Shown here: piece after piece, positions 1,593 through 6,524 of the stretch
How positions within the stretch are numbered: position 1 is the stretch's first letter
How the letters are laid out: every line of letters starts with the position of its first letter
NCBI GenBank assembly: GCA_963787255.1
Contig: CAWBCJ010000017.1
Location: 1 to 14,843, forward strand
DNA: 14,843 nucleotides
Direction: 5' to 3'
From: Methanobacteriota archaeon
Lineage (GTDB): Archaea > Methanobacteriota > Methanobacteria > Methanobacteriales > Methanobacteriaceae
Translations under genes and position numbers: made by a program
The notes under the pieces: model-generated
Database searches by the model: none
What the model saw: only the letters and a program-made list of their open reading frames with translations
What the model was told of the DNA's origin: nothing

Positions 1593-1604
1593 GGAGCGAC
1601 CAAA
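1593..1604 (+). promoter_or_regulatory. GGAGCGACC motif copy 1 (RBS of ORF 1607)
   Basis: GGAGCGACCAAACC followed by ATG at 1607. Confidence 0.75.
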
Positions 1605-1825: not shown

Positions 1826-2799
1826 TGGAAAACAGAAAATACATGGTTACAATGAAGGATCCGATGTGTTTTGAGGCACATCCACTAAATAAGGAAATAT
1901 ACGGAACTGAAGAATTAGATACTGATTTTAAAGAAGATATACGCGATAACGGTATAAGAGAGCCTATTGTGGTAAATAGGGAAGGCTTCATTATTTCAGG
2001 TCACCGCAGGTGGAGAGCTGCAATAACAATAGGTTTACCTGAAGTACCTATCAGAATTGAAGAATTTGAAAGCCCAGAAAAAGAGGAAGAGGCTTTAATT
2101 GCTTATAACAAGCAACGTGTTAAGACTAAAGCCCAAATAGTCAGGGAGATTGAGAAATTAAATTTAATATATGAAACCCTTGGACTATCAAGACGTTTGA
2201 GCAATTTAAAGCAGTTTGAAGAAAATAACACCGAAGTTGCACTAGTGCAACATCGGGAGGAAGACACTAAAATACCAGAAAACATTCCCAACTTTGAAAG
2301 TGGCCTTGAATATTTAAACACACTTAAAAAAGGAGCCATCCCTGGAAAAGGAAGGAGTAATGAGCAGATAGCTGAACAGGTTGGAGTTTCTCCAAGGACA
2401 GTTTCAAGTGTAAAAAAAGTCTTGAAAGCATCCAATGATGAGGATCCTAAAATCAGTGAACCTGCAAAAGAAATCAAAAAAGATATGGAATCTGGAAAGA
2501 TTGGCTTTAAAACAGGCGCTGAAAAGGTGAATAAACTTATTAAGAAATCTAAAGGCCACAAAGGAAGACCTAAAGGTTCTACCAGCGGACCTATAAGTGC
2601 AACAGGTGTTAAAACTTTGGTTCAAAGTAGGTTAGCTGATTTTACTGCAGAAAATACTGGAGTTGAAATACTCAGGGAATGGCTTATGGAACAGGCCCAG
2701 GAGAAATCCTTGGAAGCAAAGAAATTAGCTCTTAAACGTGGGGATAAAAAGGTAAGGGAATCTGATTTCAGGCGTGTACTTGATAAGCCTGCTTATTAA
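1825..2799 (+). CDS. ParB/Srx-domain protein with HTH, AT-hook and C-terminal histone fold
   Basis: ParB-N: HPLNKEIYG...DIRDNGIREPIVV...IISGHRRWRAA..IGLPEVPI. HTH: SNEQIAEQVGVSPRTVSS. AT-hook-like KGRPKG. Tail EAKKLALKRGDKKVRESDF resembles the archaeal histone a2-L2-a3 region. RBS GGAGG at 1814-1818. Confidence 0.85.
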   Translation: MENRKYMVTMKDPMCFEAHPLNKEIYGTEELDTDFKEDIRDNGIREPIVVNREGFIISGHRRWRAAITIGLPEVPIRIEEFESPEKEEEALIAYNKQRVKTKAQIVREIEKLNLIYETLGLSRRLSNLKQFEENNTEVALVQHREEDTKIPENIPNFESGLEYLNTLKKGAIPGKGRSNEQIAEQVGVSPRTVSSVKKVLKASNDEDPKISEPAKEIKKDMESGKIGFKTGAEKVNKLIKKSKGHKGRPKGSTSGPISATGVKTLVQSRLADFTAENTGVEILREWLMEQAQEKSLEAKKLALKRGDKKVRESDFRRVLDKPAY

Positions 2800-3062
2800 T
2801 GCTCATGGAATTTTATGAGAAAATACCGAGAGGTGAACTGGAATTGACAGCAAAAAAAGAGGAATTTATTGGAGCGACCGAAGAACAAATAAATCCGATG
2901 AGTAGGATTAACATGCAAGATTACCTGGACACAATCCAGTACAAAGGCGCTGGAAAAAGGAATAAGCGAATAAAGGAATTTTGCATTAAATATAATCTCA
3001 CCAAAGAGGATTATGACATTTTAAGGATGAAAATAGTTAAAAATCAGTGGGTATTGGCATGA
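2799..3062 (+). CDS. Hypothetical viral protein (alternative start at ATG 2898 after motif copy 2)
   Basis: ORF coupled to the upstream stop (TAATG) and containing the motif at 2871. Confidence 0.6.
   Translation: MLMEFYEKIPRGELELTAKKEEFIGATEEQINPMSRINMQDYLDTIQYKGAGKRNKRIKEFCIKYNLTKEDYDILRMKIVKNQWVLA
2871..2882 (+). promoter_or_regulatory. GGAGCGACC motif copy 2, inside a hairpin spanning 2861-2896
   Basis: GGAATTTATT-GGAGCGACCGAAGAACA-AATAAATCC; in-frame ATG at 2898. Confidence 0.7.
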
Positions 3063-3523: not shown

Positions 3524-3535
3524 GGAGCGACCAAA
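3524..3535 (+). promoter_or_regulatory. GGAGCGACC motif copy 3 (RBS of ORF 3538)
   Basis: GGAGCGACCAAACT followed by ATG at 3538. Confidence 0.75.
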
Positions 3536-4341: not shown

Positions 4342-4353
4342 GGAGCGACCGAA
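4342..4353 (+). promoter_or_regulatory. GGAGCGACC motif copy 4 (RBS of ORF 4355)
   Basis: TTGGAGCGACCGAAT followed by ATG at 4355. Confidence 0.75.
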
Positions 4354-4354
4354 T

Positions 4355-4831
4355 ATGAAAGAAAATCAAGAGTATCAATTAGTAACTATGAAGATCCCTA
4401 TTGAACTTTATACAAAATCTAAAGCTTTGATTCCAGATAGAACTAAGGATTATATAGATCATTTGAATCGTAGAATAGCAACTAGTGATAGAGCTAGCAT
4501 GATTCAAAGAGAATTAGACGAAATTAAAACACGTCAAGAATTTTTAGAGCATGAATTAGAACTAGAATTAGGATTAAAAGAAGAGGAAGAGAAAGTATCT
4601 GGACAGTATAATGATATATTTAAACAGGCAATACAAACGATTAGAAACATTATAAATGCTGAAGGATGTATTGGCATGGATAAAATGGAATCTATTGCAG
4701 CTTTAAAGGATATCAGCTTTGCTGAATTAAAAATTAATTTACCTGAAGATATCCTGGAAAAGGTTGTTAATTACCATCCTCAGTATGTAGAGAAGGTTGA
4801 TTCACAGTTTGCAAGAGGAATAAGTAAATAA
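4355..4831 (+). CDS. Putative DNA-binding protein: RHH-like N-terminus plus coiled coil (start moved from 4199)
   Basis: YQLVTMKIPIELYTK beta-alpha pattern; acidic coiled coil IQRELDEIKTRQEFLEHELELEL; motif RBS before ATG 4355. Confidence 0.65.
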   Translation: MKENQEYQLVTMKIPIELYTKSKALIPDRTKDYIDHLNRRIATSDRASMIQRELDEIKTRQEFLEHELELELGLKEEEEKVSGQYNDIFKQAIQTIRNIINAEGCIGMDKMESIAALKDISFAELKINLPEDILEKVVNYHPQYVEKVDSQFARGISK

Positions 4832-4852: not shown

Positions 4853-5098
4853 ATGGGAAAATTTGAAGAAGATAAAAAAAGAAGGGAAGAATTAATTAAA
4901 AAGGATATTGAGACTGCAGGAAAAATTTTAAAAAAATATCTTAAACCAGTATATGAAGGGGCTGGAGAAAAATGGACTGAAGAAAACGATGAAGATATGA
5001 ATACATTAGTAAAAGCAATATCCAATGCAGCAATACTTAAATCTCTTAATATTACATCAGAAATGTTAATAAAAGTTTTAACGCATCCAAAAGAGTAA
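4853..5098 (+). CDS. Hypothetical protein (81 aa)
   Basis: Strong RBS AAGGAGGAG; helical, charged sequence. Confidence 0.75.
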   Translation: MGKFEEDKKRREELIKKDIETAGKILKKYLKPVYEGAGEKWTEENDEDMNTLVKAISNAAILKSLNITSEMLIKVLTHPKE

Positions 5099-5109
5099 AT
5101 AATGAAAAT

Positions 5110-5168
5110 TTTGTAAAAATGAATGATACCAGGCCGAAACCTGGCATCAGGGAGCGTGCAACTCCCAT
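5110..5168 (-). ncRNA. Candidate sRNA-1 (double hairpin; first hairpin carries UUGCACGCUCC)
   Basis: On the minus strand: TATA TTTATATT (5196-5189), then AUGGGAG-UUGCACG-CUCCC, then UGAUGCCAGG-uUUCGg-CCUGGUAUCA, then a U-tract. The A/C mismatches on + become G-U pairs on -. Confidence 0.6.
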
Positions 5169-5235
5169 CTTAATTATTATCATAATCAAATATAAAGATA
5201 TGTAAAAATAATTTATTTTTTAAAATTAGTAAACT

Positions 5236-5308
5236 TGAAAGTACCAGGACCTAGATCCCGGTACCCAAGGGAATATTATTGGAGCGACCAAACTCTAATA
5301 AATCCCAT
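5236..5308 (-). ncRNA. Candidate antisense sRNA-2 (loop region UUUGGUCGCUCC, complementary to the motif sites)
   Basis: On the minus strand: TATA-like TTAAATATTTATAC (5340-5327), then AUGGGAUUUAUUAGAG-UUUGGUCG-CUCCAAUAAUAUUCCC, then GGUACCGGGA-uCUAGg-UCCUGGUACU, then UUUC. Confidence 0.65.
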
Positions 5309-5406
5309 TCCATATCTGTTTAGATAGTATAAATATTTAATGTAGAAATGCAAAGTAATAATTAACCCCACAAAAAAGACCGAAATCCAGATCGGAGGCA
5401 TAATAA

Positions 5407-6287: not shown

Positions 6288-6524
6288 TTGGAGCGACCAA
6301 CTATTAAATTCAGAAGAAGAGGTATCAAACCTGAAACTTCAGAGATTTATTCTATTTTAAATGAATGTCCTAATCCTAACTGCGATGCAGAAAATGATAA
6401 GTTAAGGCTAGATGAATCCCGTGCTGAAATCAGCTGTACGGTATGTGGTTATGTAATTGCAGATAGTGTTGATTATATTCATTCTGATAAAGAATTTTTA
6501 ATGATTATTGAAAAAGAACCTTAA
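6288..6524 (+). CDS. Stand-alone TFIIB/TFB-type zinc-ribbon protein
   Basis: CPNPNC....LRLDESRAEISCTVCGYVIADSVD fits the TFB N-terminal ribbon pattern; no cyclin folds. Start uncertain. Confidence 0.8.
   Translation: MERPTIKFRRRGIKPETSEIYSILNECPNPNCDAENDKLRLDESRAEISCTVCGYVIADSVDYIHSDKEFLMIIEKEP
6290..6300 (+). promoter_or_regulatory. GGAGCGACC motif copy 5 (start region of the TFB-ribbon gene)
   Basis: TTTATTGGAGCGACCAACT overlapping the predicted start. Confidence 0.72.

Follow-up and report, generated by a model that had tools for sequence, protein, structure and literature searches.

The DNA analyzed here (the window) is a 14,843-nt stretch from a methanogenic archaeon of the family Methanobacteriaceae. 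It is the whole of contig C17 (14.8 kb) of a 2.47-Mb archaeal genome in 29 contigs, and holds a decayed integrated tailed virus. Two tandem double-hairpin units, units 1 and 2, lie on its minus strand. We hold with moderate confidence that unit 2 encodes a trans-acting antisense small RNA (sRNA), which would mask the translation-initiation regions of early genes of the provirus. A short tag complementary to the loop of unit 2 is repeated at gene starts, unit and tag recur together in a second provirus, and the predicted folds favor the strand that would produce the complement. From these sequences we infer that unit 2 is transcribed, that its effect is repressive, and that it contributes to silencing or timing.

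Complementarity between unit 2 and a tag at gene starts

The loop and 3′ arm of hairpin 1 in unit 2 (…GAGUUUGGUCGCUCCAAUAAUA…) are exactly complementary to a virus-specific plus-strand tag, (U)AUUGGAGCGACCRA. Six copies of the 11-mer GGAGCGACCAA, with at most one mismatch, are found in the window, all on the plus strand, against an expected number of 0.09; none of 200 shuffled sequences reached six. The 9-mer core GGAGCGACC occurs six times in the genome, every time in this contig, and is absent from the other 2.455 Mb. The window contains seven GGAGCG hexamers, all of them in tag copies or in unit 1 and all on the plus strand. One of the six copies lies within unit 2 itself (Table 1). Four of the other five are located 13–14 nt before a start codon or overlap one.

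It should be noted that the tag contains GGAG. This motif is the sole Shine-Dalgarno-like element for several of the genes and stands at a normal spacing, so the tag must be transcribed as part of the mRNA. Each tag copy is preceded by 8–10 A/T. As expected of an RNA with at least two initiation regions as targets, complementarity to unit 2 extends over 13–17 nt at the five window sites and over 12–22 nt at eight sites in the second provirus described below. The predicted fold of unit 2 exposes the proposed recognition loop UUGGUC in hairpin 1, and the minus strand is favored in all three known units.

The 39 nt around the copy at 2871 (2861–2899) resemble the whole of unit 2 hairpin 1 (83%). 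Because this similarity spans all of hairpin 1, it suggests that the unit originated by duplication of a gene-start region.

Two further candidate roles of the tag were rejected. Mimicry of tRNA 3′ ends does not apply, as not one of the 33 host tRNAs begins with GCGACC or has GGTCGC at its end. Pairing between the tag and rRNA does not apply either: no 8-mer complement is found near the rRNA operon, and the tag adds nothing to the anti-Shine-Dalgarno match. The 3′ end of the host 16S rRNA is the archaeal …GGATCACCTCC.

A second provirus with the tag and the unit

Relatives of the 158-aa protein encoded downstream of the tag copy at 4342 are present in 12 of the 313 other family genomes. The loci of this protein family amount to 13 in those 12 genomes, three in metagenomes and two in IMG/VR. 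Only one of the relatives, in genome G117 of the same genus (158-aa homologue 51% identical), is accompanied by the tag. In G117, nine tag copies lie within 16.4 kb, without exception on the gene strand. Eight of them lie in the early module, six within 18 nt of a candidate start and two inside a 539-aa open reading frame (ORF); two copies stand downstream of a Shine-Dalgarno sequence and an ATG. The ninth lies inside a homologous two-hairpin unit, which occupies the same place as unit 2, directly upstream of a 93-aa zinc-ribbon gene (L166:6723–7004, minus strand). The G117 unit is identical to unit 2 at 52 of 70 positions and the neighboring protein is only 51% identical, so conservation of the unit clearly exceeds that of its surroundings. 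The unit has no AUG, and G117 has no counterpart of unit 1. The G117 provirus looks intact, with a 396-aa integrase, ParB-N, ERF, a TFIIB zinc ribbon, a 542-aa large terminase subunit (TerL) and a MuF-like protein.

In the genomes and databases searched, the system is not seen beyond these two elements. Clusters of TGGAGCGACC are found only in G000 (the present genome; 5/0) and G117 (0/7) among 314 family genomes, and elsewhere there are at most three dispersed copies. At the remaining 17 related loci (12 loci of family genomes, three metagenomic and two from IMG/VR), neither GGAGCGACC nor any 9-mer repeated more than four times is present; those repeated 9- and 10-mers that were looked at belong to coding repeats. 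A descriptor of the cassette recovers only the three known units in 23 genus and 314 family genomes, the extra matches (three in the genus scan, 15 in the family scan) having no second hairpin. The descriptor GAGTT..CGCTCC..CCTGGT gives at least 120 matches in the genome contigs and at least 120 in IMG/VR; among the matches listed, 12 loci have a GC content below 0.45 and none of these is a cassette. In a blastn search of the cassette against the 314 family genomes, only the AT-rich spacer (query 113–179) matched, in 102 genomes, and no hairpin homologue was found. The 15-mer tag has 114 single matches in IMG/VR, all in coding sequences or at tRNA ends, with no cassette.

The matches of the 13 targets with the two elements' units were also compared. 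The contiguous match is longer with the unit of the target's own element in eight cases (equal in two, shorter in three), and in 10 cases when G·U pairs are allowed (one equal, two shorter). For example, an extra A in GACCAAAC of two window targets matches an extra U in the loop of unit 2. These matches give a hint that unit and targets may have co-evolved within each element.

A repeated viral promoter is another possible meaning of the A/T block and GGAGCGACC, the copy in the cassette then being the promoter of the zinc-ribbon gene. The model for this is the set of intergenic repeats of halovirus HF2, whose class I/II repeats are conserved, oriented, located in the early region and active as promoters, with a conserved block around the start site (PMC8707807). 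The tag resembles them as a short conserved repeat that keeps one orientation, belongs to the early region of its archaeal tailed virus and is retained in relatives, and the 8–10 A/T before each copy would suit a TATA box. However, the HF2 repeats, as described there, are promoters of 29–58 bp with the start inside, and the geometry of the tag does not fit. The A/T block directly abuts the tag, so a TATA box within it would put the transcription start ~19–23 nt into or past the tag, downstream of the start codons at +13/+14. A TATA box ~26 nt before a start within the repeat, as in an HF2-type intergenic-repeat promoter, is not found, and four of the 13 copies lie after an ATG or in ORFs; in G117, two copies stand behind a Shine-Dalgarno sequence and ATG and two in the 539-aa ORF. 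The GGAG, 9–10 nt before the ATG, is also an element that has to be transcribed, and one tag copy lies in a double hairpin that favors the antisense strand. We thus consider a promoter very improbable.

Folding of the units and the probable strand of function

A first-pass annotation of the window had described two paralogous minus-strand double-hairpin units, and the present analysis confirms them (unit 1, 5168→5121; unit 2, 5308→5237). Their layout is as it had stated: an AUGGGA start, a hairpin 1 that ends in CGCUCC, and a hairpin 2 with CCUGGUA in its 3′ arm and a U-G-closed tetraloop, UUCG in unit 1 and CUAG in unit 2. Hairpin 2 is GC-rich in both units. The loop segments also differ as described (UUGCACGCUCC and UUGGUCGCUCC). 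Of the 48 positions of unit 1, 39 align to unit 2; the AU-rich middle of hairpin 1 is missing from both arms, which leaves a shorter hairpin.

The minus strand folds more stably than the plus strand. For the 246-nt region, the minus strand gives −66.3 kcal/mol (z −5.64; none of 200 shuffles equally stable) and the plus strand −52.9 kcal/mol (z −3.32). The values for the single units, minus versus plus, are −28.0 and −24.1 kcal/mol for unit 2, −26.5 and −18.9 kcal/mol for unit 1, and −30.0 and −25.2 kcal/mol for the G117 unit; the advantage of the minus strand is 3.9–7.6 kcal/mol in all three. G·U pairs make up 11 of the 67 predicted pairs. When the three copies of hairpin 2 are lined up on the invariant 3′ arm CCUGGU, two pairs switch between G·U and A-U, and one pair changes from U-A to C-G. 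The alternation between G·U and A-U is harmless on the minus strand only, and therefore fits only a minus-strand RNA. Hairpin 1 shows one clean compensatory change, U8-A33 to C8-G32, and its GGG/CCC base is kept with a one-base register shift. Since only three sequences were available and the MAFFT alignment misplaced unit 1 and the 3′ arm of hairpin 2, the search relied on pattern scans rather than a covariance model. Judging from the predicted folds, the minus strand appears to be the functional one. The tag copies at gene starts and the copy in the cassette are all on one DNA strand, so a complement must come from the opposite strand.

The hairpins were also considered as a terminator of the plus-strand operon. 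The T6 run (5216–5221) and a T8 run at the same relative place in G117 both precede the hairpins on the plus strand, and no T-run follows them there, so the hairpins are not plus-strand terminators.

As to signals for minus-strand transcription, the TATA boxes of the first-pass annotation are present as TATA-like octamers at the right distance: in each of the three known units, their 5′ edge precedes the hairpin 1 base by 30 nt (within 3 nt). They are weak evidence, because such octamers are frequent by chance in AT-rich DNA. The U-tract assigned to both units is clear only after unit 1 (U5); unit 2 is instead trailed by U3, U3 and U4 runs. In an Rfam cmscan of the window (E ≤ 10), the seven matches are weak and none falls in 5100–5340. 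ARAGORN finds no tRNA gene in the window.

Weighing of the antisense reading

Several observations weigh against the assignment of unit 2 as an antisense sRNA gene. With respect to the targets, three or four of the 13 tag copies lie within ORFs rather than at annotated starts. Duplex energies calculated for the whole sRNA do not separate most targets from the background: only the site at 2861 stands out, and the other four, at −33 to −36 kcal/mol, fall in the range of unrelated windows in the top 15 of 5,922. The difference between cognate and non-cognate matches is small and the cases are non-independent, and gene conversion within an element could also produce the pattern. Since there are only two elements, both with the same tag, no true covariation of guide and target is available.

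With respect to the strand, hairpin 1 alone cannot discriminate, each strand gaining one G·U pair, and the plus-strand folds remain stable at −19 to −25 kcal/mol. At random positions in AT-rich host DNA, the chance of an octamer at the right place is 0.29 with up to two mismatches and 0.05 with up to one, and a TATA-like stretch is also present on the plus-strand side. When the 60-nt regions upstream of the two units are compared, their similarity does not exceed that of shuffled sequences, and no convincing U-tract is found downstream of unit 2 or the G117 unit. Runs of T ≥ 6 are common on the gene strand (11 and 15 per element), so that the T6 or T8 run before a unit is weak evidence.

The tag may instead be a site, in the plus-strand RNA or DNA, for a protein of the virus or the host, such as a translational repressor or an endoribonuclease. 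Proteins of these types are exemplified by RegA, a translational repressor, and RegB, a sequence-specific endoribonuclease, of phage T4. The cassette would then be a structured leader or operator of the zinc-ribbon gene with an extra tag copy, and antisense RNA would play no part. Like a protein operator, the tag copies are all on one strand and near starts; in both elements the orphan copy lies ~120 nt ahead of the zinc-ribbon/HNH gene; and the stability of the plus-strand folds is compatible with such a site. However, a protein site leaves unexplained why the alternations between G·U and A-U in hairpin 2 are tolerated on the minus strand only, why this strand has the folding advantage in three units, and why matches to the element's own unit continue into the flanks beyond the core. 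No candidate RNA-binding protein was identified among the provirus proteins examined. We regard a protein site as unlikely, and retain the antisense sRNA as the preferred reading of unit 2.

Unit 1 and the origin of the units

The loop of unit 1 differs from that of unit 2 at two central positions, which leaves a match to the tag of only 6 nt. As the first-pass annotation noted, the target of unit 1 is not found elsewhere in the window: GGAGCGTGCAA occurs only at 5151, even with one mismatch. Of the targets that it proposed for unit 1 (the missing part of the provirus, host genes or a rival virus), none was found. Elsewhere in the genome GGAGCGTGC occurs twice, both times deep inside host genes, where a rough composition-based estimate gives ~2 chance occurrences, and it forms no cluster in the 22 other genomes of the genus. 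These searches for GGAGCGTGC covered the window, the genome and the 22 congeners; the family-wide and viral-database searches used the unit-2 motif and the cassette descriptor, and a target beyond these data may exist. The complement of unit 1 has five exact 11-mer matches in the genus, all singletons, four of which are the AT-rich intergenic hairpins described below.

The units had also been proposed to be a mini-array of swappable guides. The part of this proposal that stands is that the segment differing between the units is, in unit 2, the complement of the tag at gene starts. The array itself is not supported, since by the cassette descriptor 314 family genomes contain only three units with two loop versions, and only one version has targets. 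Judged by sequence, unit 1 is a tandem shortened duplicate of unit 2 with no detectable target at present. It may be a relic, or it may supply a hairpin and a U5 end for a unit 2 transcript that reads through.

A frame of 38 codons rich in hydrophobic residues (5168→5055) begins with the AUG at the 5′ end of unit 1, its predicted start; the frame could encode a leaderless small membrane peptide or have arisen by chance. If unit 1 were the 5′ end of a leaderless mRNA for this 38-aa peptide, it would not be a regulatory RNA. We give this hardly any credence: the equivalent frame in unit 2 stops after 10 codons by eye, the G117 unit offers no AUG, and the 38-codon frame (5055–5168, minus strand) runs antisense through the end of the gene at 4853–5098.

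Four loci of other genomes of the genus (L424, L425, L426 and L428, in G100, G105, G110 and G112, respectively) have an AT-rich intergenic hairpin that starts with GGAGCGTGCAAAAA…, the complement of the unit 1 loop. These hairpins are absent from the corresponding intergenic spots of the present genome. Two adjoin a gene that we take to be Hjc-like and one a gene that is presumably GatB/GatE-like; the fourth is beside unrelated genes. They may represent a small sporadic repeat element.

Neither unit need act in trans if both are structural leftovers, namely a duplicated gene start, comparable to 2861–2899, beside a hairpin at which transcription would end or be insulated between two operons. 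The resemblance of the 39 nt at 2871 to unit 2 hairpin 1 is in line with this, as are the lack of a target for unit 1 and the decay of the window provirus, in which the integrase (155 aa versus 396 aa in G117) and TerL (396 aa versus 542 aa) are both shortened. However, the unit is kept in the intact-looking G117 provirus beside a much less conserved protein, the changes between units preserve the structure, and the plus-strand T-runs come before the hairpins, not after them. Leftovers of this kind are therefore a rather improbable explanation.

Genetic surroundings of the units

The provirus is flanked by a host WG-repeat gene and a host CheB gene, and its genes are almost all on the plus strand (Table 1). 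Both units are located in the 308-nt gap between the ORF at 4853–5098 and the HNH ORF. After TerL, no head or tail genes are present before host genes restart.

Table 1. Coordinates of the units, the tag copies and the main provirus genes in the window
Feature	Position	Strand	Remarks
Unit 2, candidate antisense sRNA	5237–5308	−	Assigned from fold and homology to the G117 unit
Unit 2 hairpin 1	5306–5269	−	Loop ~5291–5286
Unit 2 hairpin 2	5266–5239	−	12 bp including 4 G·U; CUAG loop
Unit 1, shortened paralogue	5121–5168	−	U5 run 5119–5115 downstream
Unit 1 hairpin 1	5166–5150	−	GGGAGU/GCUCCC; loop UGCAC
Unit 1 hairpin 2	5149–5124	−	UUCG loop
TATA-like octamer TTTATACT	5326–5333	−	Predicted start ~30 nt downstream, at base of unit 2 hairpin 1; weak
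TATA-like octamer TTTATATT	5189–5196	−	30 nt upstream of first G of unit 1 hairpin 1; weak
T6 run	5216–5221	+	16 nt before unit 2; possible end of an upstream plus-strand transcript
Tag copy	1593–1603	+	14 nt (first G of GGAG to A) before ATG 1607 of a 72-aa ORF; 13 nt complementary to unit 2
Tag copy	2871–2881	+	Inside ORF 2799–3062, or 27 nt before in-frame ATG 2898; 17 nt complementary, one G·U
Tag copy	3524–3534	+	14 nt before ATG 3538 of a 38-aa ORF; 15 nt complementary
Tag copy	4342–4352	+	13 nt before ATG 4355 of the 158-aa protein conserved among Methanobacteriaceae proviruses; 17 nt complementary, two G·U
Tag copy GGAGCGACCAA in unit 2	5281–5291	+	Its minus-strand complement is the proposed recognition segment
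Tag copy	6290–6300	+	Start of TFIIB-type zinc-ribbon gene (TTG 6288 or ATT 6303); 16 nt complementary
Integrase fragment, 155 aa	946–1413	+	
ParB-N protein, small ORFs, second ParB-N protein, DNA methylase, small terminase subunit			In the window provirus
HNH ORF, 276 aa	5407–6237	+	
TFIIB-type zinc-ribbon ORF	6288–6524	+	
TerL, 396 aa	9908–11098	+	

The HNH ORF resembles the 93-aa zinc-ribbon protein of G117 with an HNH nuclease domain inserted and the original protein duplicated or split to either side: residues 7–56 (56% identity) and 193–274 (39%) of the ORF both align to that protein. The HNH ORF has five distant homologues. With the protein search used, neither the HNH ORF nor the G117 TerL has relatives in IMG/VR. 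Directly before the GGAGG of the HNH gene, the minus strand of 5372–5400 contains a short hairpin, CCGA…UCGG, followed by UCUUUUUUG. This is either a terminator-like structure for minus-strand transcription or, on the other strand's mRNA, a 5′-leader hairpin of the HNH gene.

An ATG is lacking in the TFIIB-type zinc-ribbon gene; the frame begins with TTG 6288, which lies in the tag, or with ATT 6303. When the nucleotide contexts are compared by eye, ATT 6303 falls opposite the ATG of the homologue in G117, and a non-canonical start is possible. Inside the ORF at 4355–4831, a weak C/D-box snoRNA-like Rfam match (SNORD45; 4658–4719, plus strand; 27.1 bits, E 0.12, gathering score 42) is probably due to chance.

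Proposed mechanism and precedents

According to the antisense reading, unit 2 would be a small non-coding RNA gene transcribed against the early genes, which themselves would be expressed as a polycistronic plus-strand mRNA with the tag, including its Shine-Dalgarno-like GGAG, at their translation-initiation regions. Pairing would be seeded between the exposed loop UUGGUC and GACCAA in the tag, and then spread into the arm of hairpin 1. The duplex would cover the ribosome-binding site, so that translation of all tagged genes, including those for the conserved 158-aa protein and the TFIIB-like zinc-ribbon protein, would be shut off together. Alternatively, pairing may mark the mRNA for cleavage. 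The GC-rich hairpin 2 may serve as a stabilizing 3′ stem-loop. The early module would thereby be kept silent or be timed.

A stronger version of this mechanism is RNA-only immunity, in which the private address tag and one sRNA would silence the early module, maintain lysogeny and exclude relatives with the same tag, unit 1 being a second guide against a heteroimmune relative missing from current databases. New guides would evolve by duplication and loop change, like the c4 RNAs of phages P1 and P7. Loop differences underlie the heteroimmunity of P1 and P7. We consider this extension rather doubtful.

Returning to the antisense sRNA as such, phage c4, PhiH Tant and sRNA41 may be regarded as precedents by analogy. 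The c4 antisense RNA of P1 blocks expression of ant (Citron & Schuster 1990, cited in PMC8198154). As far as that account describes the immI system of P1 and P7, c4 resembles the predicted unit 2 RNA in being a structured antisense RNA of a temperate virus that pairs at a ribosome-binding region, with loops that set the specificity. In contrast, c4 is cut from the transcript of its own target within one operon, whereas the unit 2 RNA would come from the opposite strand and address 5–8 dispersed starts in an archaeal host. Processing of the c4 type, on the same strand and in the same operon, thus does not apply here. The cmscan of the window likewise gives no match to the Rfam C4 family (E ≤ 10).

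Tant, an antisense RNA of the Halobacterium virus PhiH, leads to removal of ribosome-binding sites from an early transcript (Stolt & Zillig 1993; PMC4284463). In the outline given there, it is similar as an antisense RNA that a temperate tailed virus of archaea directs against an early lytic transcript, whose ribosome-binding site it takes out of use. Tant is, however, cis-encoded and overlaps its single target, whereas unit 2 is complementary to short tag copies elsewhere; because they lie elsewhere in the genome, its action would be in trans.

Trans action of this kind has been proposed for sRNA41 of Methanosarcina mazei, which would repress by masking several ribosome-binding sites in a polycistronic mRNA (Buddeweg et al. 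2018; PMC5867862). Both are archaeal trans-acting small RNAs over several ribosome-binding sites, by prediction in the present case. In the summary that this source offers, sRNA41 is chromosomal and concerned with nitrogen/ACDS metabolism, whereas the unit 2 RNA would be virus-encoded and its targets carry a dedicated 11–18-nt tag that is absent from the rest of the genome.

Implications

No account of a system of tag and antisense unit was found in the literature on methanogen proviruses and archaeal-virus antisense RNA (titles and abstracts, without supplements). The novelty would lie in a virus-encoded RNA that acts in trans on multiple targets through a private ribosome-binding-site tag in a methanogen provirus. 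To our knowledge, almost nothing has been learned about gene control in methanogen viruses, and we know of regulatory small RNAs in archaeal viruses only from a few cis-antisense cases. Unit 2, provided that it is expressed, would represent a virus-encoded trans-acting archaeal sRNA with a defined multi-gene target set and a virus-unique tag. The rule, if true, would be one tag and one guide, and it could be reused as an orthogonal translational switch in methanogens. RNA-based immunity is known from P1 and P4-type phages, and the present system, if the reading is true, would be its archaeal counterpart.

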